IMG/VR virus record: IMGVR_UViG_3300030376_007782
Location: 1 to 61,725 of that record
Length of the DNA stretch: 61,725 nt
Direction: 5' to 3' (one strand)
Source of the DNA: a virus
Lineage: Duplodnaviria; Caudoviricetes
The notes under the pieces were generated by a model. It was not told where the DNA came from. It saw only the letters and a list, made by a program, of their open reading frames with translations, and made no database searches. A program made the position numbers and the translations under genes. Positions 5,744 through 43,671 of this stretch are shown here, piece after piece (position 1 is the stretch's first letter; the number at the start of each line of letters is the position of its first letter).

Positions 5744-6365
5744 TGGTGGGTAGTAGTTTCTTAAGCTGTCTTCCAATTGAAAGAGCAATCTTTCGGTGCT
5801 CCAACTGAGTATCACCCTGCCCACGTAGGCCAACGTAATGGATAAAAGTACGAATCGAGGCAGCCATGTGGAGTTTGCTCGGCGTGTAGAGAGGGAGGAT
5901 ATTTCGAGCACACTCACGGGCAACACCTGCATCGAGCATATCTTCGTACAGATTTCGCGTAGTTACATCTAAAAGTTGAATCTGTTTACGGAACTTTTTT
6001 TGAATCTCGTATGGGATTTCAACAGAGCTGCTTTGGCGATTGGCTGTCGCTTGCTCTCGTAGAGAAAAATCTGTTGGGTCGTTGTCTGCTTCTCGCAATA
6101 CCTCCCACGGGTTAGCGTAACGCTGAGAAAGTTCCTGAAAATTTGCAGTCTTGTGACGCAGAATTTGTGGGGAGATTGCCCTAGTCGTCCAAATCTCAAA
6201 GCTCGCACTAGCTTGCTCGAACACCGACCAGTGTCCATGCTTGATGCAGAAACTAATCAATTTTTTAAACTCAGCTCGGTCAGGGTTCTTGGTCGACACC
6301 CTCGCATGACGAGCAATCACCTCTTCTGGGTTGGGAGTGATCCAATCAAGATTTGCAGTATGCAC
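5676..6365 (-). CDS. thyX: FAD-dependent thymidylate synthase
   Basis: HWSVFE, QILRHKTANFQELSQRY (RHx-x7-S-x-R signature), GVARECARNILP, TQLEHR. Confidence 0.95.
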   Translation of the reverse strand: MHTANLDWITPNPEEVIARHARVSTKNPDRAEFKKLISFCIKHGHWSVFEQASASFEIWTTRAISPQILRHKTANFQELSQRYANPWEVLREADNDPTDFSLREQATANRQSSSVEIPYEIQKKFRKQIQLLDVTTRNLYEDMLDAGVARECARNILPLYTPSKLHMAASIRTFIHYVGLRGQGDTQLEHRKIALSIGRQLKKLLPTITEALTEVEEPALSGWKSLRIL

Positions 6366-6394
6366 TTAGCGCCAAGATAGTGGCACTCAGCTTA

Positions 6395-6553
6395 TCAGCT
6401 GCGGGGAAATGCTTCCTGATATCGAAGTCTTTTTGTGATCTCGCTGGGGTTAGAGACCATTCGGATCACTTCAGAAGGCCCCATGCCAAACTGCATTCCA
6501 GCCATGCGAACACCAGACCCTGGCATTTGCTCACTGCGGATATTGTTACGCAT
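6395..6553 (-). CDS. small hypothetical protein (52 aa, MRNNIRSEQMPGSGVRMAGMQFGMG...), not in ORF track
   Basis: ATG overlaps end of upstream gene; carries RMAG motif. Confidence 0.55.
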   Translation of the reverse strand: MRNNIRSEQMPGSGVRMAGMQFGMGPSEVIRMVSNPSEITKRLRYQEAFPRS

Positions 6554-7064
6554 CTTTCTTACCCTCAACCGCACCTGGCATATACAGATTGTCAGGCATG
6601 TTGTAGTTAATTAGCGGATATGTAGATGTGTTCTGGTCGTTAAAGAAGTTCTGCTTAGGCACAGAAGTTGCCATGGCGACTTGCTGACGCAGAGCAGGAT
6701 TTAAGTTGTTTGCCTCTGCAAGCAAGTACTGTTGATGGCTAAGGTCAGCAGCTTTTCCAGGCATAACCATTTTGCCTGCTTGGTTGTACCCAGCAACGCC
6801 CACGGTCTCTTGGCTTGGCATGATGTTGCCCAACTGGTAGTTAGTAGTCCCTACCGCTGGGCGCTGGTACTTTCCCGTGTCTACCTCGTACTGTGTGATG
6901 ACACGATTGATGTTATCTAAACCTCTCAAGCCGGTGACGGCAGTATTAGAGGAGTGATACATGGCAGGTGAAGAAGGCAACTGCGTAGTTGCAGCATCTT
7001 TACTTCCCAAAGGTGTCATCTTTGGCAGTGGTCCGTTTCCGCCGGGACGTTGTAAATAAGCCAT
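6546..7064 (-). CDS. hypothetical low-complexity protein (possible internal virion protein)
   Basis: 172-aa ORF rich in P/G/N/Q/M. Confidence 0.65.
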   Translation of the reverse strand: MAYLQRPGGNGPLPKMTPLGSKDAATTQLPSSPAMYHSSNTAVTGLRGLDNINRVITQYEVDTGKYQRPAVGTTNYQLGNIMPSQETVGVAGYNQAGKMVMPGKAADLSHQQYLLAEANNLNPALRQQVAMATSVPKQNFFNDQNTSTYPLINYNMPDNLYMPGAVEGKKDA

Positions 7065-7340: not shown

Positions 7341-7535
7341 TTATACTCGGTCAGCAAAGTAAGCTTCCTTGGCTTCACGACCGTAGCCCTCATTCTCTGC
7401 ATCCCACTCCTCCCACAGACCTGTATAAAGACCGTTGGTACGATCACTACGGTCATACAAAAACTGAATGAACTCAGCCTTTTGGTTCTCCAGGTTTATA
7501 TCCCACTCTTTCAAGTAGTCAGCTTCGGTCTTCAT
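7341..7535 (-). CDS. hypothetical protein
   Basis: 64-aa acidic ORF (LYDRSDRTNGLYTGLW). Confidence 0.6.
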   Translation of the reverse strand: MKTEADYLKEWDINLENQKAEFIQFLYDRSDRTNGLYTGLWEEWDAENEGYGREAKEAYFADRV

Positions 7536-7559
7536 GGTGAAAATGTCAGTGGAAGAAGT

Positions 7560-8801
7560 CTAGGAGCGTTCGGCACAAATGCCCCATCCGTCGTGAGCTG
7601 AGGCCACGCTCCATCTCCTTCCAAGTTTGTCTTTGTTATAAAGCTGGTTGCTTCCGTCGGCAGAATTGTAAGTTCCTGTATCCAAATTGAGGGATCCAAA
7701 TGGATCGTGGCAAATGATGTTTTTCCCATCGGGAGTGATTCCTTTTGCCAAAATCCAATGCCCTCCGCCGCTGGGCGAGTCCAACATGCCTCTGTGCAAA
7801 ATGCCAATGGGGACAGGCATATCATCATGCAGCAGGTCCTCAACGTCCGACCACGCAAGGTCTTGCCGGAACTTGGCATCAACTCCGTAGGACGAAAGTG
7901 CTTGAAGCTGGACCCAGGCTTCAGTAGTGTCTCCAATAGAGAAAACAGTTTTGATATAGTCGTCGTCATTGCTGATAACTCCAGGCTTTAAGTAGTTTAA
8001 TAACATCGCACAAGAAGAAGAGTAGCAAGTGCGGTCAGCATCTCTGTAGTTATCTCGCTGCGAGTAGTACTTAACAGCTAGGTCTACACCAGCTCCTTTG
8101 TTGACGGTGACAGTACCATCTGGAACATCGTTAATAATTTTGAAATGCTCTCCCCAGATATACCAATGCTTCTGGTCAGCAGTTAACAGAACTCTCTGAT
8201 GAGAACTTCCCGCAAACATTGTTAGTTCGTTCCACTCCCACGCTGAAGATTTAGGGACAAAAACTTTTTCTTCAGAAAGCAAGGTGGAAGAGTCAGCCAT
8301 TCTCTTCTTTAGCCAGGTGTCTTGCTTGGCATAGATCGACTGACCTAGTTTTGGGTGCTTGTTGACTTTCTCAAGAAAAAGGGTTTTTTCAGCTTCTCTA
8401 CGTTTAACGAGACCAGGAAGAGGCTTGCCATCAGCGCCTTTTACCCAGCGACCAAACTGCTCAGCCACTACCTTCTTATCTTCATTTTCGTTAATAAGAC
8501 GACAAAGAGTTGAGTCCTTGAAAGCAGTACAACCAACGTTGAAAGCGAAGCTAACTAACGCATCGAATTCGTTTTGGTTCAGTTTTACGTTTGTGAAAGT
8601 GCTTATACACTGCTCGAAACTCGCTACATCCTGCCTGAGAAAGGTATCTGCCTCTTCTTCTGTGATGGTCATCCCTAGTTTGACATCGGCTCCGGTGTGA
8701 CCATAACCAACCGTCTCCACAGAGCTAGGGCACAGGTACGCCATAAGACGAAGACCTTCAAACCTCTTGATGAGAGCTAGTCCATTATTAGAGATTCTCA
8801 C
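7560..8801 (-). CDS. endolysin: GH24 lysozyme + C-terminal C39-like cysteine peptidase
   Basis: IKRFEGLRLMAYLCP, TVGYGHT, NQNEFDALVSFAFNVG, LPGLVKRREAE; YYSQRDN...TCYSSSCAM, GGGHW, HDPFG. Confidence 0.9.
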   Translation of the reverse strand: MRISNNGLALIKRFEGLRLMAYLCPSSVETVGYGHTGADVKLGMTITEEEADTFLRQDVASFEQCISTFTNVKLNQNEFDALVSFAFNVGCTAFKDSTLCRLINENEDKKVVAEQFGRWVKGADGKPLPGLVKRREAEKTLFLEKVNKHPKLGQSIYAKQDTWLKKRMADSSTLLSEEKVFVPKSSAWEWNELTMFAGSSHQRVLLTADQKHWYIWGEHFKIINDVPDGTVTVNKGAGVDLAVKYYSQRDNYRDADRTCYSSSCAMLLNYLKPGVISNDDDYIKTVFSIGDTTEAWVQLQALSSYGVDAKFRQDLAWSDVEDLLHDDMPVPIGILHRGMLDSPSGGGHWILAKGITPDGKNIICHDPFGSLNLDTGTYNSADGSNQLYNKDKLGRRWSVASAHDGWGICAERS

Positions 8802-36975: not shown

Positions 36976-37024
36976 GATACTAACGGTACAGATAGTCTAT
37001 ATAGTCTACTCAGTTTATATAGAC

Positions 37025-37051
37025 AAAAAAAGACCCCTCCGAAGAGGGGCC
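37025..37051 (-). terminator. Rho-independent terminator after capsid operon
   Basis: GGCCCCTC-TTCG-GAGGGGTC-TTTTTTT on the minus strand. Confidence 0.9.
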
Positions 37052-37073
37052 GTCCGTGTTCCAACTGATCTTA

Positions 37074-37952
37074 TCAGCGGGGTTGGGTAGATGTGTAAAC
37101 AGAAGATTCTGTAACACCGTCGGGCTGAAGAGCCACGTCCTGACGCTCTGGAGGAGAATCGGGAAGAATCCAACAGACTTCGCAAATTGCGAGAGCCTTT
37201 TCGTCGCCAGACAAGAAGTTGTTGCCAGCGCGAGGATCGTAAACACCAGAACCTTGCACCACAGGGGAGGCATTGGTTGTTGCAAAAAGCTTCCACTGAG
37301 TTTCCGCAGTAGTAGCTTCCAGCAGACTGGAGTCGATGATGTTGGTGGAAGCAACCGATCCGTTAGGAATGCAGCGGTTAGCACCAATGGCGGAGACTGC
37401 GAAACCACCCGAAACAACAGTGTTGTCATTCGGATAGCCTTCACCCACGGCGGGAGCCAAGGACAAAGTAGGTGCAGCTTCTGAGCCAGGGATACCAGAG
37501 CTGACTACGTCTCCTCCGGTGATCCGCAGAGAAGCGCGGTAGCAATAGACGCCTGAAGGAACCTGAATACCGTCAGCAATGTCCTGACGAACATCCTTAT
37601 GGAAGTCCGGTGAAGGGATGATGACAGCAGCGTTACTAAAAGCAACGTTGGAGTTGCCGTTAGGGGAGCTGTTAACACCAGAGCCATAGGCTTGGGTGTA
37701 GTACTCCAGCTGGTTGACGGAACCAAGAGCTTGGTAGCTCAGGTCAACGTAACCAATTGCTTGTTGAGCAACCCAGCCGGGACGGAAGATGACGCCGACA
37801 GGACCACCAACAGGCTGGTTGGTGTAGCTCGAAGAAACGCCATTGGCGTTCTCGAACTGCATGGTTTTTTCTTCGTGCCAGTAACGAAGAACATTTGCGT
37901 AGTTGCCAGGATAAATCTTGGCGACTGAGATCTGGTTGGGATTAATTGCCAT
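37074..37952 (-). CDS. minor capsid/decoration protein
   Basis: Directly after MCP, GAGG RBS, co-terminated; beta-rich. Confidence 0.6.
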   Translation of the reverse strand: MAINPNQISVAKIYPGNYANVLRYWHEEKTMQFENANGVSSSYTNQPVGGPVGVIFRPGWVAQQAIGYVDLSYQALGSVNQLEYYTQAYGSGVNSSPNGNSNVAFSNAAVIIPSPDFHKDVRQDIADGIQVPSGVYCYRASLRITGGDVVSSGIPGSEAAPTLSLAPAVGEGYPNDNTVVSGGFAVSAIGANRCIPNGSVASTNIIDSSLLEATTAETQWKLFATTNASPVVQGSGVYDPRAGNNFLSGDEKALAICEVCWILPDSPPERQDVALQPDGVTESSVYTSTQPR

Positions 37953-37963
37953 CGTTAGTTACC

Positions 37964-39079
37964 TCAAGCGTCGAAGGAGTAACCAACGGTCACGAAGTCT
38001 GCATTTAGCAGCTCGAAACCAGCATACAGGCTCCAGATCATCATGATGAATCGCGAGAAGTCATCATTATTATTCAGGAGTACCTGTGCATTGTTACCGC
38101 CGATGCCGACGCCAACAGACTGAGGACCGAAGAACATACCGATCGCAGCGTTGTAATCAGCTGCTGCACCGGCAATAGTTGCGTTTTGACTTTGAGAAGG
38201 CATGTTGGTCGATTCGAAGAATCGCACACCTTCAAATACAAAGCCCGTAGGCATGATCGGCTCGCCAGCTACGAAAGTAGCCTGACCGAAACCCTGACCC
38301 ATATACAGCGCAGCGTTAGGCTGCATTGCTGACATAAGGGGATTAATCTGACCGTTACCGGGGTAGCGAGCCACCTCACGGAAGTCAGAGTTTTGACGCA
38401 AGTGCATCAAAAATGTAGGGTCGCAAACGCAGCGGTAGAACCCATCCTGGTAGGTAGGGGTGTTGCGCTTACGGAGCGATTTGACCACGCGGAGGAGGTC
38501 ATCTTTAACGTCGAACTTGGCTTGCTCGGCGTTGGTGTATGTAAGTGCTCCCGTGGCAAGATCGCCAGGGAAGTAGTAACCACCTTGTGTATCTGATGAT
38601 TGGCCTTTAGAAACAGCTTTTAGAAGCTCGTTAATAAAGACGCGATCACGCCAACGGCGGTAATCATCCAACAAAGTCAAGCTGCCTATGCTCTGATGGA
38701 AGGTAGTTAGATTACCTGTATCGAGCAACAATCGTTGCGCAGTGATGAGAGTCTCACGCGCAACTTTGAAGGTAGAAGGTTGTGTTGGATCTGAAGGATC
38801 TGCAGGTCCCGTATACTCACGAAGCGTGACTAATACCTTGTCTTTTACGATATTCCTGCTGTTTGCAGTACCAATCGTTTGCTCAGCTGTACGCTCACGT
38901 GACTCCTTAGAGCCAGGATTGCCGAAGAACTTGTAACGGTCAAGCTGTACAGTCTGACCCGGCTGTTTTGAAAAATCGTGGACAATAACAGGCTCTGCAG
39001 CCATTTCCACGATGTAAGCCGGGTGGGGACGATACAGTTCCGCACCAAGAATCTTCGGAAAATCATTATCGATGAACAT
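37964..39079 (-). CDS. major capsid protein (N4-gp56-like HK97 fold)
   Basis: DFSKQPGQTVQLDRY, VLVTLREY, GFYRCVCDP, GFVFEGVRFFESTN, FFGPQSVG. Confidence 0.85.
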   Translation of the reverse strand: MFIDNDFPKILGAELYRPHPAYIVEMAAEPVIVHDFSKQPGQTVQLDRYKFFGNPGSKESRERTAEQTIGTANSRNIVKDKVLVTLREYTGPADPSDPTQPSTFKVARETLITAQRLLLDTGNLTTFHQSIGSLTLLDDYRRWRDRVFINELLKAVSKGQSSDTQGGYYFPGDLATGALTYTNAEQAKFDVKDDLLRVVKSLRKRNTPTYQDGFYRCVCDPTFLMHLRQNSDFREVARYPGNGQINPLMSAMQPNAALYMGQGFGQATFVAGEPIMPTGFVFEGVRFFESTNMPSQSQNATIAGAAADYNAAIGMFFGPQSVGVGIGGNNAQVLLNNNDDFSRFIMMIWSLYAGFELLNADFVTVGYSFDA

Positions 39080-39160: not shown

Positions 39161-40372
39161 TTACTTTACGGTAACACCAGCAGAGTTAACACTAGCGCTA
39201 AAGGTGCGTTGTACGTTCCGAGAAGCCTCTCCAATCATGCCGTAGACACCGCCATAGTTTGTGACATATATAGAGGACTTACCTCTGTACATCCGACGGA
39301 TGTTGCTATCCAGAGTTCCAGGAAGCTTAGATCGCACGATCTCACTAAAAGTTTCACAGTAAACAGGAGGGTTGTAAACCCACGCAGCTCTAGATCCGGA
39401 GGTATCCCCTGTTTTGTTGATTATTGTCGGATACTGAGCGCGTGGGTAGGAGACACCACCACCTGTACTTCCGTTTTGCTTTCCGTCTGCTTGAGGAGTT
39501 TGAAAAGGAGAATAAGACTGATTGTTAGGTGCAAACGCACCCCACCACGTGTAAGCTCCCTTGCTTCTCAACCCAGGTTGACCACCTAAAGCAGTTTGAA
39601 CAGTCGAAGCAGTATTGCTTCGGTAGAGGTTCTGATACCTAAAACCGTCCTGCAGGGTGAGCTGACCAGAAACTGCTGGAAACTCAAATGAGGTGTAGTT
39701 GCTCCAGTAACCAGGAACTGCAGGAGGAACAGTTCTCCAATTTGTGGTTTGATACAGAGGATTGTTAATAGGCACACCTCCGTACGGGAAGTTTGTAGTG
39801 CCACCCATATTGGGGTGAATCTGACAGTAGGGGTAGATAACTTCCATTGGAAGTAACTCACCTACTACTCTTACAAACGCTCCAGTAGTTCCCGGTACTC
39901 CTGAATATGTCACTCCGTCAGTTAAGAGCGTCCCTCCTGCATGCGTCCCATCCGCAGTAAGACTCAGTTTAAAAGGATGAGGTACTAATGAAACGTCGGA
40001 AATATCAAAAGTGTATGTACTCCCCTCAAAAATAAAAAAGTTGGTGTTTTCGACTCCATCGAAGTAAAAACGATTACCAGCCGGAGTATTGACCACCGTG
40101 ACTGTGATGGTTTTGTTTTCTGGGTATGTAGGTTGGTTGATTTCCGACGCAAAAGTCATCGGAGGACCTGGGGTAATAATCCCAAAATTTGGTCCGTCGT
40201 TAATAACGGTGAAATAACTTTGTTGTTTACCGTTAGGCATTCGGTATCCACTTGATACCAGTTTGTACGTATCTGTTAAGTCAAGACTATCCTCTGTGCG
40301 CTGTGGCCCTGACTGTATATTGTGATAAAGGTTCTTGTCGTACTTCCAGTTAGTTTGAGATGCGTAAGTCAT
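39161..40372 (-). CDS. virion structural protein with cupredoxin-like domain
   Basis: GSTYTFDISD...HPFKLS...DGTH...YPYCQIHPNMGG. Confidence 0.65.
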   Translation of the reverse strand: MTYASQTNWKYDKNLYHNIQSGPQRTEDSLDLTDTYKLVSSGYRMPNGKQQSYFTVINDGPNFGIITPGPPMTFASEINQPTYPENKTITVTVVNTPAGNRFYFDGVENTNFFIFEGSTYTFDISDVSLVPHPFKLSLTADGTHAGGTLLTDGVTYSGVPGTTGAFVRVVGELLPMEVIYPYCQIHPNMGGTTNFPYGGVPINNPLYQTTNWRTVPPAVPGYWSNYTSFEFPAVSGQLTLQDGFRYQNLYRSNTASTVQTALGGQPGLRSKGAYTWWGAFAPNNQSYSPFQTPQADGKQNGSTGGGVSYPRAQYPTIINKTGDTSGSRAAWVYNPPVYCETFSEIVRSKLPGTLDSNIRRMYRGKSSIYVTNYGGVYGMIGEASRNVQRTFSASVNSAGVTVK

Positions 40373-40433: not shown

Positions 40434-40802
40434 ATGAATTATCTAGCCGAAAAAGCTCTAGATGTTCTGACAGACGACCCTGAACAATTTATGGCTGCAA
40501 TGTCAGGATCAATCACAGATTCTATTTTGCATCCAAAAAAACTAATGTCGTGTTTGTTAAAAACAGCGGTAGTTGGTTTTTTCTTGGCTGAGTTCGTTAG
40601 TCCTGCGATTGCACAAAGACTAGAACTCAGTCCTAAAGAAGCTGTAGCCCTTTCCTTTATCTGCGGTTATGCAGGAATAAGAGGACTAAGAATTGCAGAA
40701 AATATGGTGATGAAAAAAATTCAACCGATGGGAGGAGTAAGCGATATTTCGACGCCTTCGTCAAAACCATCAGAAGAAGCTTCTACGTCTTCTGCTGACT
40801 GA
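40434..40802 (+). CDS. holin-like membrane protein
   Basis: AAMSGSI...AVVGFFLAEFVSP...ALSFICGYAGIRGL TM pattern. Confidence 0.6.
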   Translation: MNYLAEKALDVLTDDPEQFMAAMSGSITDSILHPKKLMSCLLKTAVVGFFLAEFVSPAIAQRLELSPKEAVALSFICGYAGIRGLRIAENMVMKKIQPMGGVSDISTPSSKPSEEASTSSAD

Positions 40803-40903: not shown

Positions 40904-40936
40904 AGTTTAAAACTGTGAGTCAGCTAATACTAAGTC

Positions 40937-40969
40937 AAAAAAATACCCCCGCATTGACTGCGGAGGTAC
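40937..40969 (-). terminator. Rho-independent terminator after scaffold gene
   Basis: GTACCTCCGCA-GTCAA-TGCGGGGGTAT-TTTTTT on the minus strand. Confidence 0.85.
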
Positions 40970-41012
40970 TGTGTTCAAGATCTGTATCGAGGAGATCCGA
41001 ATTAAGCCTATA

Positions 41013-41945
41013 TCAGGCTCCTTCCATAAACAAGAGCTTATTACGCATAGCGTCTTGGTTCATGCCCTGGAGGTAACGCCAAGCGTTTTCAGGATTGCGG
41101 TTCATAACTTCAGAGAAGCCTTCCCACTGCTGCTGAGGAGCTACGGAACCTTGCTGACCACCAGCGCCAGCAGGTACAGCAGGCATATCAAACTGTTGTT
41201 GATACTGCTGTTGTGGTTGTTGATAACCACCTTGCTGTCCCATCTCATCACCGATGTCCACGGGGTAGACCTCAGTGAAGTAGCGATCTGTGTAGTCAGC
41301 CAGATGATCAGGATGGGTAAGAATCTGATGCATCGCACCAGCCTTCTGGTTCAAAGCGTCGTAACGCTGAGACTGATCAATAAGCATATCCTCAAGAGCA
41401 CATGAGTACTGATTGAGGATTCCAGGAGCTTCGATTCCGAAGTGCCTAACGACCTCTTCGCTTACGTTGCTTAGGCTTATTTGGCTGGGTGCCGTAGAAG
41501 CCGGAGAGGAAGTTTGGGTCGGTGAGGCGCTGGTAGGCAATGTCTGCGCTGCCTGCGGTTCCTGGTAAGCCCAAGGCTGGGCCTGTGAAGGCTGACTGAG
41601 CGTTGCTGTATCCACCTGTGGCGCTTGATTGAGCGACCACTGAGTCGGGCTGGGGGAGGGAGAGTTGACCTGAGTCAGCACCCGCTCCAGCGAACCCATC
41701 GCTGCTTCCCAAGGATTGTTCGGGAAGGACTGCGATGGAGACTGGCTGTACTGGTTGTTGGTAGTAGGGGCCGTAGCCTGTGTTACCTGCTGTGGCGAGG
41801 GGGCTGTAGGTACCGAAGCTGCCACCGGGGTAGCTGCTTGAGGTACCCACTGGGGATAAGCGGTTGAGCCCTGGTCGCTGGTTACCGTCGGGGCTACCGC
41901 CGGGGAGACCGGGCTCGGGGTCGAAGCTTGGATCTGCTGGCTCAT
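41013..41945 (-). CDS. putative capsid scaffolding protein
   Basis: P/Q/S/T-rich N-term, coiled coil, C-terminal helix (FSEVMNRNPENAWRYL); located between portal and MCP. Confidence 0.7.
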   Translation of the reverse strand: MSQQIQASTPSPVSPAVAPTVTSDQGSTAYPQWVPQAATPVAASVPTAPSPQQVTQATAPTTNNQYSQSPSQSFPNNPWEAAMGSLERVLTQVNSPSPSPTQWSLNQAPQVDTATLSQPSQAQPWAYQEPQAAQTLPTSASPTQTSSPASTAPSQISLSNVSEEVVRHFGIEAPGILNQYSCALEDMLIDQSQRYDALNQKAGAMHQILTHPDHLADYTDRYFTEVYPVDIGDEMGQQGGYQQPQQQYQQQFDMPAVPAGAGGQQGSVAPQQQWEGFSEVMNRNPENAWRYLQGMNQDAMRNKLLFMEGA

Positions 41946-43671
41946 AGCTACCCGAATAAGTTAGTTCTTCAGCGAGATGGTCAAACGTCCTGTAAAGGAG
42001 CGGTGTGATGTTTAGTCTAGGATCAGCCGCAAGTGGTTGATCTGGCGCAAGGGGATGCGGTGATTGCAACATCTGGCTTAATAATACCAGGAATTGTTGC
42101 ATTGCTGCTTGAGTTTGTTGAACCATACGAAATGGGAAACCCTGCAGCATTTCTGCTCTTTCGTTGTCAGTTTTTTCAGGAAAAAGGAATTTAAGTGCTT
42201 CCACACTGTCTACTCCTAGTTCTTGCAAGTTTCTAACAACAATCGACTTCTGGTTGATGTCGTAAGCGGTGTCTTCGTAGACATCACCTTGGTAACGATA
42301 AGTCACCTGACGCTCACCGTCTTCAGGAAGACCAACTACACCAGGAGGGACTTTGCCCTTCTCAATAGCAGTCTTAATCTCCTGATTCACCTTGTTATCA
42401 AAGCGGCGAAGAGAAGTTTGATACTTCTCATTCGACTCAGGAGTTTGCTCCTTAGGAGGTGAGGGAACTTTCATTCCCGAAGCAACAATAAAGGACTCTC
42501 GGAAAATTTGTTCCTGGTGGTAGATAATCATTTCCAACAAACGGCAAAATCCGTAGGTCAGAAACGACTTATTTTTCCGAAGAGCAGTTGCTTGCGCTCT
42601 ACCAGTGAGACCTTTGATCTCTGTGGCAGTTGCACCAGCTGAGATTGAGATTTCGTCGACTCCGCCAAGCGCTGTACGAATTTCTTCGCGTAGTAACAGC
42701 GAATAACGGTTCATATCCCCAGACACAGGGTCTGGAGTCATGTAACCGACTCGATCTGAAGGCTCGATGTTCGCAATAATTCGCGGAACACGTAGCCCAC
42801 CACCCATAGCGGTGCCAAAAGGCTCGCTAACCCTTGTTGAGGGGGTGCTTTGACCCGCAAATCCGCTCTGACTGCTGATTGTCGGGCGGAAAGTGTTCTG
42901 AGCGTCGTTAGCTTCGACCAGATCACTACGGGGACGGGAACTAATCAGGGTGGGGTTGCCAAAGAACTCGATATTCTTGGCAACATTGCGAATAATCTGA
43001 TCATGAAGCACGATTTGCTCCATAAATGGGTCAAATTCGCCCTCACCCTCTGTTCCTGATGCGTTTGGCTTGTTTAGAACCTCTACAGCAGGTACGAAAC
43101 CCAGAGTGTTCTTTCTTGTGTTGCCTGGAGTCAGTACACTTCCGGGTTCTAACTCAAAGCTAAGCTCAGAATCACTCTCGTTTTCTGTTATTTCGTCTGC
43201 TGTAATGGATAAACGAACGTATCTTTTGTTCTGTCCATATGTCGTTGAGGGCAGACCTAAGTTACCATTCTTAACTTTATAGCTGTAGAGAATGACAACT
43301 TCCTCTACAGAACCGTTTAGGTCGTGGTAGACCCGATACTGGTTTCTGTTGAAGAAATAGATCTGATATTTTAGTTTCTCATCAGGACGAAAGTAAAACA
43401 GGCCACAGCCGTCGATCAGGAAGTTCCTAATAATCGAAGGAAATCGAATATCAAGCCTGTTCAGGGCAATAATGTCATCTAGAAACCTAGTGCGGCTCTT
43501 GTAGGTATCTTGTTCGCAGTAGAAGGTAATACCCTTCTTGATCATGTACAAGACCATCTGCTGGATGTGACTAAGCACAACCATCGTCGCTGACTGACTT
43601 GAGCGATCCTGAGTCCTTGCGGCTTCTAGGATCTCCTCAAATCGATTTCTAATTTCTGTTGAGGACGACAT
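41446..43671 (-). CDS. portal protein
   Basis: 741 aa near terminase; NTLGFVPAVEV, GEGEF, NIEFFGNP, ISAGATATEIK, RNLQELGVDS. Confidence 0.8.
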   Translation of the reverse strand: MSSSTEIRNRFEEILEAARTQDRSSQSATMVVLSHIQQMVLYMIKKGITFYCEQDTYKSRTRFLDDIIALNRLDIRFPSIIRNFLIDGCGLFYFRPDEKLKYQIYFFNRNQYRVYHDLNGSVEEVVILYSYKVKNGNLGLPSTTYGQNKRYVRLSITADEITENESDSELSFELEPGSVLTPGNTRKNTLGFVPAVEVLNKPNASGTEGEGEFDPFMEQIVLHDQIIRNVAKNIEFFGNPTLISSRPRSDLVEANDAQNTFRPTISSQSGFAGQSTPSTRVSEPFGTAMGGGLRVPRIIANIEPSDRVGYMTPDPVSGDMNRYSLLLREEIRTALGGVDEISISAGATATEIKGLTGRAQATALRKNKSFLTYGFCRLLEMIIYHQEQIFRESFIVASGMKVPSPPKEQTPESNEKYQTSLRRFDNKVNQEIKTAIEKGKVPPGVVGLPEDGERQVTYRYQGDVYEDTAYDINQKSIVVRNLQELGVDSVEALKFLFPEKTDNERAEMLQGFPFRMVQQTQAAMQQFLVLLSQMLQSPHPLAPDQPLAADPRLNITPLLYRTFDHLAEELTYSGSYEPADPSFDPEPGLPGGSPDGNQRPGLNRLSPVGTSSSYPGGSFGTYSPLATAGNTGYGPYYQQPVQPVSIAVLPEQSLGSSDGFAGAGADSGQLSLPQPDSVVAQSSATGGYSNAQSAFTGPALGLPGTAGSADIAYQRLTDPNFLSGFYGTQPNKPKQRKRRGR

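Follow-up and report, generated by a model that had tools for sequence, protein, structure and literature searches.

Can one stretch of DNA encode the end of one phage head protein and the beginning of another in different reading frames, with both readings maintained by selection? This question is raised by a linear virus record of IMG/VR, IMGVR_UViG_3300030376_007782 (61,725 nucleotides (nt), estimated completeness of 76%), the whole of which is called the window below and whose source is an S-EIVl-like aquatic (marine) phage. On the minus strand of the window, the gene for the portal protein and the scaffold-like gene that follows it, here called gene X, share 500 nt, the portal reading frame continuing 166 codons past the ATG of X (Table 1). 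This ATG lies at portal offset 1726 (3 x 575 + 1), so that X is read in the +1 frame relative to the portal gene. A preliminary description of this DNA had reported the overlap together with a G/S/P/Y-rich portal tail ending in KPKQRKRRGR and a P/Q/S/T/A-rich X head, and the coordinates and translations of the open reading frames (ORFs) bear out these statements; GGGTAGCT, which it placed immediately 5' of the X ATG, is also present. Our analyses of the window and its relatives indicate that the two genes are, in all likelihood, an old overprinted pair of neighboring head-morphogenesis genes in which X is initiated independently.

Conservation of the overlap among relatives

The overlap was followed through four sets of relatives. 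Set 1 (clade 1) consists of 80 IMG/VR loci with 78-97% portal identity to the window, together with the window itself and the Synechococcus phage S-EIVl, and shows the +1 overlap in 82/82 sequences with a length of 488-554 nt. Set 2 (clade 2) consists of 80 IMG/VR loci with 78-97% portal identity to S-EIVl, together with S-EIVl; two of these 81 are cut by contig ends and all 79 evaluable members carry the +1 overlap, with a length of 554-641 nt. Every overlap length tabulated for these two sets equals 2 modulo 3. Among the 81 loci of set 3, with portals 33-51% identical to that of the window, the overlap is found in 74 of the 74 that could be evaluated (five portals are cut and two contigs end), with 461-608 nt open, and it is found in all 22 of the most distant loci (set 4; portals of 565-777 amino acids (aa), 28-62% identical to the search queries), where it measures 65-569 nt from the first ATG. 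The single distant portal queries P0023 and P0056 yielded 1 and 0 loci. With the one contig common to sets 3 and 4 counted once, all 255 distinct evaluable loci (the window, S-EIVl, and 253 loci from IMG/VR) have a +1 ORF whose start lies within the portal gene and whose end lies beyond the portal stop (255/255); the overlaps measure 65-641 nt across the family, and the portal identities go down to about 30%. The preliminary description had allowed for homologous portals that stop near 41945; the portal frame continues through the overlap in all 255 loci. In two loci, L187 and L188, the first +1 start (ATG, GTG, or TTG being accepted) reads Val where relatives have Met, and counting from the first ATG would give an overlap of only 74 nt.

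In set 1, stops are absent from both the portal and the X frame throughout the overlap in 82/82 sequences; none of the other four frames, the third in sense and three in antisense, is stop-free in any (0/82). When the window's portal tail is shuffled synonymously or by codon order, its +1 frame stays open in 0.9-4% of cases, so an open +1 frame in one sequence alone is unusual, not extreme; it is the fact that both frames are kept open among relatives that makes the overlap more than a product of chance. The same comparison bears on the possibility that a lost stop or an indel, introduced by assembly or sequencing, had falsely extended the portal ORF. The same architecture occurs in 254 further assemblies, made up of cultured S-EIVl and 253 viral contigs that were assembled independently, and DNA contigs from other studies match positions 41509-42280 with 0 differences, so that such an error, against which the preliminary description had advised a check, can practically be dismissed.

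A search of 50,697 phage records gave S-EIVl (KJ410740.1, locus L001 here) as the only named relative. Its portal protein, of 767 aa, is 45% identical to that of the window and is annotated as a hypothetical protein. The +1 X ORF of this phage extends from 5748 to 6725 (325 aa) and overlaps the portal gene by 554 nt, whereas the annotated coding sequence, 6324-6725, encodes 133 aa and begins after the portal stop. The overlap is thus omitted from the public annotation of the single cultured member.

Selection on the two reading frames

Changes per site were counted by Fitch parsimony at codon positions 1, 2, and 3 on a portal-body tree. Where only the portal frame is read, the counts for positions 1/2/3 are 2.76/1.32/12.83 in clade 1 and 2.24/0.98/10.93 in clade 2, and where only X is read they are 3.96/2.86/13.25 and 2.26/1.41/9.28, respectively. 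Within the overlap, they become 4.21/2.24/4.96 (clade 1) and 4.94/1.98/2.99 (clade 2) in the portal phase and 2.06/4.58/4.35 and 2.01/2.78/5.05 in the X phase. Third-position change is therefore ~2-4-fold lower in the overlap for both frames and in two independent clades, which amounts to a loss of about half to three quarters of the variability at each frame's "silent" position. The ratio of amino-acid to codon change is 0.18-0.33 for the true frames of the single-coding parts and 0.90-0.95 for the off frames; in the overlap, it is 0.57 and 0.68 for the portal frame, 0.66 and 0.54 for the X frame, and 0.86 and 0.89 for the third frame. Purifying selection on both frames is well supported by these nucleotide comparisons.

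Along the overlap, constraint alternates between the two frames in short patches. The X frame dominates at 41868-41824, 41724-41662 (which includes the predicted NPWEAAMGSLERVL helix), and 41580-41554, and the portal frame dominates at 41796-41734, 41652-41590, and 41562-41482. In the region of the NPWEAAMGSLERVL helix, for example, X third positions show 6-9 changes and X second positions 0.2-2.8. Twelve residues of the X head, M1, Q3, V13, Q25, P31, Q32, V34, Q36, P78, W79, E80, and A82, are invariant across both clades. The proposal of the preliminary description that the two genes are overprinted, with both frames coding and stop-free and with reduced synonymous variation in homologs, is thus upheld by the 255 open loci, by the synonymous suppression in two clades, and by the alternation of patches.

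A portal tail that is a functionless appendage, translated for want of a stop while only the X frame is selected, would be compatible with the predicted disorder of this tail (see below), with an amino-acid change rate about twice that of the portal body, and with the existence of one subclade in which the tails are much shorter and the overlaps measure 65-179 nt. We consider it very unlikely, because the portal-frame ratio of 0.57-0.68 is well under that of the non-coding frames, some patches carry a clear portal-frame codon signature, and 129 portals from the two clades, whose overall identity is 44%, share 20 invariant tail positions (Y576 to P719). In addition, a PG(S/T)T-type motif and a basic C terminus recur in relatives at about 30-40% identity, basic runs also end most of the portals displayed for distant relatives, and the portal frame is stop-free in every relative over up to 641 nt.

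The composition of the overlap differs from that of its surroundings. On a codon-usage scale on which 0 is uniform and 1 genome-like, the two overlap frames score -0.02 and -0.21, whereas the portal body scores 0.77 and the remainder of X 1.26, and the GC content is 0.60-0.62 in the overlap versus 0.40-0.47 in most flanking windows. Both the non-genome-like codon usage and the GC island are expected of an old overlap, and since the usage of neither frame is genome-like, it does not decide which frame is the older. Between 41500 and 42000, where the GC island coincides with the overlap, the plus-strand GC skew is +0.21 to +0.24; the coding strand is C-rich and stop codons are accordingly rare in the overlap.

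The start of gene X

The X ATG is present in 82/82 clade-1 sequences and throughout clades 1 and 2. In clade 1, an in-frame stop lies 5 codons upstream of it in 79/82 sequences, 22 codons upstream in two, and 1 codon upstream in S-EIVl, and in clade 2 the stop is 1 codon before the ATG in 73/73 loci measured. About 65 nt around the ATG are almost invariant within clade 1. The ATG of most lineages arises from the Tyr-(Ala/Gly) codons within E-L-(T/S/N)-Y-(A/G), a conserved motif of the portal protein that is read ..T TAT GCA GGA C, so that X begins Met-Gln-Asp; in the window clade, the ATG is shifted four codons downstream, to Ser-Tyr-Glu. A Shine-Dalgarno sequence, AAGGAG, stands 7 nt upstream of the X ATG in 76/76 clade-2 sequences.

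If only the portal frame were functional, the start of X would lie either at Met83 (41699) or beyond the portal stop, the open +1 frame being a by-product of a C-rich, stop-poor composition. Such an account would fit the overlap GC content of 0.60, the frequency of open shuffles given above, and current annotation, as X begins after the portal stop in the GenBank record of S-EIVl (133 aa) and about Met83 in many automatic calls (222-227 aa), other calls giving a full-length X of 303-317 aa. It is nevertheless highly improbable. The +1 frame is open in 255/255 relatives versus 0/82 for the third sense frame; codon signatures of the X frame are already seen ahead of Met83 (X residues ~25-60 and 77-82), and two residues in this part, W79 and E80, are invariant in both clades; and the amino-acid/codon ratio of the X frame is 0.54-0.66 compared with 0.86-0.95 in non-coding frames. 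Moreover, S-EIVl-type X proteins have no Met at the Met83 position, and the window lacks any ATG, GTG, or TTG that could serve as a start once the portal stop is passed and before the conserved FGIEAP block of X is reached. The conserved ATG behind a stop, the X signatures ahead of Met83, the lack of Met83 in S-EIVl-type proteins, and the lack of a later start together favor the upstream ATG. The start at 41945 given in the preliminary description is in agreement with the conserved ATG behind an in-frame stop, although the gene callers, for their part, are split among three starts.

The preliminary description had also raised a programmed +1 frameshift in the overlap, which would yield a portal-X fusion seeding prohead assembly beside or in place of free X. 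The +1 relation of the two frames would permit such a fusion, and the ~50 nt that follow the ATG, which include CCC-rich runs, hardly vary within either clade, a constancy that can be ascribed to two conserved peptides being encoded at once. X, however, has its own start, with an in-frame stop 1-22 codons before the ATG in every clade-1 or clade-2 sequence measured, which is not what a frameshift-only product needs, and in clade 2 this start has its canonical AAGGAG. No slippery site was identified, though +1 slippery motifs were not searched systematically, and RNA folding was not significant (single-sequence z-scores of -0.92 and -1.53, with a weak alifold consensus) and thus offered no stimulatory structure. 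A frameshift fusion is therefore unsupported and highly unlikely as an explanation of the overlap; a minor fusion product could still be made.

The constrained stretch upstream of the X ATG

In clade 1, the ~174 nt that precede the X ATG (42119-41946) show 4.07 third-position changes compared with 13.81 in the remaining portal body, and 0/460 windows of equal size are as low. The same holds for ~270 nt upstream of the ATG in clade 2 (L083-L162), with 3.58 changes compared with 12.27 and 0/403 windows as low. The third positions of this stretch are not conserved between the clades. A hidden third gene upstream of the X ATG was considered and rejected, as each of the other frames is open over 240-261 nt in at most one of the 82 sequences. 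An antisense ORF of the window at 42033-42194 was likewise discarded as a gene, being kept in only 14/81. A guess would be that the constraint reflects signals within the portal gene for the expression of X, which makes the stretch a candidate control region for X. The TAGACT box of the preliminary description does exist, at 42019-42014, but its reading as a promoter is unsupported, a scan with the sigma-70 consensus giving 0 promoter-like sites in 41400-42400. No Rfam family matched the overlap or the upstream constrained stretch at E<=1; two weak sub-threshold Rfam matches lie at 40928-40986.

Two metatranscriptome libraries from a single study contain contigs, 95-99% alike, that extend over 41248-42199, the X ATG included, and have no indels in the overlap. 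They span the 5' half of X and about 250 nt upstream of it, and for the portal gene above 42216 no RNA-library contig (X19, X20) was found except one at 42767-42919. These contigs are compatible with transcription, DNA carry-over being possible; as contigs cannot show transcript ends or levels, they are not taken as evidence of an internal transcript.

Identity of the two proteins

In a PHROG search, residues 8-729 of the portal protein matched phrog_20475 with an E-value of 4.7e-167, and weaker matches were obtained to the further portal families phrog_64 (E 1.6e-7) and phrog_104 (E 3.6e-5); there was no match in Pfam. An AlphaFold2 (AF2) model based on 129 homologs has a mean predicted local distance difference test score (pLDDT) of only 51.6, with ordered blocks at 70-88. 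The top matches of this model in a Foldseek search of the PDB are phage portals without exception (best E 2e-9), including those of 80alpha/SaPI1, T7, SPP1, and cyanophages, which together with the PHROG match supports the earlier naming of the upstream gene. The model is ordered to about residue 574, its last helix spanning 556-574; residues 534-741 have a pLDDT <50, and residues 575-741 are nearly devoid of secondary structure and, in this model, appear as a disordered low-complexity tail. Because the predicted fold ends at residue 574 and the X ATG lies in portal codons 575-576, the overlap begins where the predicted fold stops.

X, on the other hand, has no match in Pfam or PHROGs (117 family members and 15 distant homologs included), no family match in a PDB profile search or in the ESM Atlas, and no named family in a Foldseek search of BFVD, where its sole match is an unnamed protein of 133 aa; the source names of its database relatives are "hypothetical protein" or unnamed in 129/129 cases. 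Its AF2 model is poor (mean pLDDT of 46) and mostly disordered, with helices predicted at residues 78-92, 160-223, and 270-307. The last of these regions forms a C-terminal hairpin of helices 270-283, 285-293, and 297-307 with a pLDDT of about 73-79 and the invariant residues W274, F277, M281, R283, P285, N287, A288, W289, and R290. Portal-scaffold-capsid is the classical gene order. X is located between the portal and major capsid protein (MCP) genes, and in the distant relatives L254 and L256-L261 the MCP gene follows it directly. A complex prediction for MCP and X residues 250-310 gave scores of 0.58, 0.04, and 0.03 with a mark of 0.32, which speak neither for nor against binding. Judged by gene order and by the predicted shape with its helical C terminus, X is probably a scaffolding protein. 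The scaffold label of the preliminary description thus fits gene position and C terminus, and the searches above gave no sequence or fold match to a known scaffold family.

Coordinates and neighboring genes

The features discussed here are collected in Table 1. Between X and the capsid genes, the window contains an opposite-strand ORF of 122 aa at 40434-40802 (+), with a weak match to the holin family phrog_2359 (E 2.7e-4). An ORF of 403 aa at 39161-40372 (-), between X and the MCP gene, has short domain matches to tail-fiber and virion-structural PHROGs (phrog_27200, E 6.8e-17; phrog_693, tail fiber, E 8.5e-8), an odd gene position for such a protein. The next-longest off-frame stop-free runs within long ORFs of the window measure 142 and 141 codons (37010-37444 within 37074-37952 (-) and 7532-7969 within 7560-8801 (-)), and their translations resemble chance ORFs.

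Table 1. Features of the portal/X locus, in window coordinates
Feature	Position	Strand	Remarks
Portal gene	41446..43671	-	741-aa ORF; TAG stop at 41448-41446
Gene X (scaffold-like)	41013..41945	-	310-aa ORF, +1 frame relative to portal
Dual-coding overlap	41446..41945	-	500 nt including portal stop codon; portal residues 576-741 and X residues 1-166
X start codon ATG	41943..41945	-	Built from portal codons Ser-Tyr-Glu (AGC TAT GAG)
TAA stop in X frame	41961..41963	-	5 codons upstream of X ATG; closes X frame upstream
Portal basic C terminus KPKQRKRRGR	41449..41478	-	From ORF translation
Portal-dominant patch, portal GNTGYGPYYQQPVQPVSI	41734..41796	-	7.0-8.3 changes at portal third positions vs 0.9-2.7 at first
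Portal-dominant patch near tail end, GSADIAYQRLTDPNFLSGFYG	41482..41562	-	Contains cross-clade invariant residues G707, D710, Q714, P719
X predicted helix, residues 78-92, NPWEAAMGSLERVL	41670..41714	-	Most conserved part of X head; X frame dominates constraint
X C-terminal helical hairpin (predicted), residues 270-307	41025..41138	-	Best-predicted part of X
Constrained portal-only stretch	41946..42119	-	Directly upstream of X ATG; synonymous variation strongly reduced
MCP gene	37964..39079	-	371 aa; phrog_1357 major head protein, E 5.5e-22

Discussion

The reading that best accounts for these observations is that of an overprinted gene pair with an independently initiated X. The portal protein would be read to its stop at 41446 and thereby gain a tail of 166 residues, predicted to be disordered and with a basic end, whereas the same 500 nt, read one base on, would provide the first 166 residues of X. 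X would be made by initiation at the ATG at 41945 instead of by frameshifting and would act as the scaffolding protein, and the constrained 170-270 nt upstream may carry expression signals that let X exceed the portal protein in amount. The overlap would persist because both disordered arms have gained functions, so that neither frame could now be lost.

The history of the overlap can be approached from a tree of portal bodies. With midpoint rooting of this tree, overlaps of at least 266 nt lie on both sides of the root, and the short overlaps (65-179 nt) are nested in a clade whose other members have 338-542 nt. This distribution suggests, tentatively, that the long overlap is ancestral for the sampled portal family and was shortened once in one subclade. 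A gain or loss of this low-complexity DNA changes the length of both proteins at once.

Several points weigh against the interpretation as an overprinted pair with its own X start and a scaffolding role. No Shine-Dalgarno-like motif precedes the X ATG in the window clade (0/81), and elsewhere the motif is found in only 6/74 (set 3) and 3/22 (set 4) sequences; gene callers often prefer Met83. The synonymous reduction extends 170-270 nt upstream of the overlap, where one frame only is open, and a non-coding constraint of this kind could add to the third-position dip inside the overlap. The parsimony counts depend on alignments of low-complexity sequence, and the portal tail and the X head are known from sequence, not at the protein level. 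X belongs to no known family, its scaffold label resting on gene order and predicted shape, and in the window two other ORFs separate it from the MCP gene. Finally, the portal tree is midpoint-rooted, without an outgroup, and its support values were not examined.

Overlapping genes are well-known in viruses, and the portal/X pair shares features with several of them. The lambda spanin genes Rz and Rz1 are a same-strand, +1 out-of-frame pair that serves one process, the second gene having its own start. Rz1 is, however, a short lysis gene wholly inside Rz, whereas here the ends of two head-assembly genes overlap and both arms are long and disordered. Long out-of-frame dual coding is found in the A/B/K and D/E genes of phiX174 (Microviridae) and in the overprints of RNA viruses, which, like the overlap described here, show suppressed synonymous change in both frames and disordered or compositionally unusual products. 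These overprints occur in very small, size-pressed genomes, whereas the genome of this tailed phage is approximately 80 kb of double-stranded DNA (dsDNA). Nested head genes that include a scaffold are represented by lambda C/Nu3, Mu I/Z, and herpesvirus UL26/UL26.5, in which an internal start leads to a more abundant scaffold; these pairs share frame and amino-acid sequence, whereas in the portal/X pair the frames differ and the peptides are unrelated. In T7 10A/10B and the tail chaperones G/GT, a second frame downstream of a structural gene is read by programmed frameshifting. The downstream frames of T7 10B and G/GT have no start of their own and it is the slippery site that is conserved, whereas here it is the start behind an in-frame stop. 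S-EIVl, in turn, has the same gene pair with the same +1 overlap and differs in that its annotation omits the overlap.

To our knowledge, long out-of-frame overlaps are textbook material in tiny viruses and rare and seldom verified in tailed dsDNA phages. Full-text literature searches, which did not cover the S-EIV1 description, found no published out-of-frame overlap between portal and scaffold genes. The overlap is thus confirmed and family-wide; overprinting as a kind of arrangement is already known, and this instance of it is new. According to a survey of annotated viral overlaps (PMC7017920), 84% of them are shorter than 50 nt.

Together, these data show that, throughout a widespread and almost uncultured lineage of aquatic phages, two core head genes have 65-641 nt in common; the lineage comprises one isolate (S-EIVl) and hundreds of metagenomic contigs. 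The lineage offers a deeply sampled natural system for the question of how two disordered arms split the constraint on one DNA stretch. The data also correct the public record of this isolate, in which the first ~190 residues of X are missing, and the split of gene callers among three X starts serves as a warning for automatic annotation. The stretch upstream of the X ATG adds a candidate expression signal buried in the portal gene. A further, speculative step, which we regard as unlikely, would be to see the overlap as a family-wide assembly and expression module, in which the constrained 170-270 nt of the portal gene serve as an embedded promoter or leader that sets the scaffold:portal ratio and in which the arms nucleate the prohead at the portal vertex by binding each other or packaged DNA. 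The scaffold start codon would then be carried by the final helix of the portal fold, and co-expansion of one low-complexity tract would lengthen both partners together. If the two arms do interact, the gene overlap would be linked to the portal-scaffold nucleation of procapsids.

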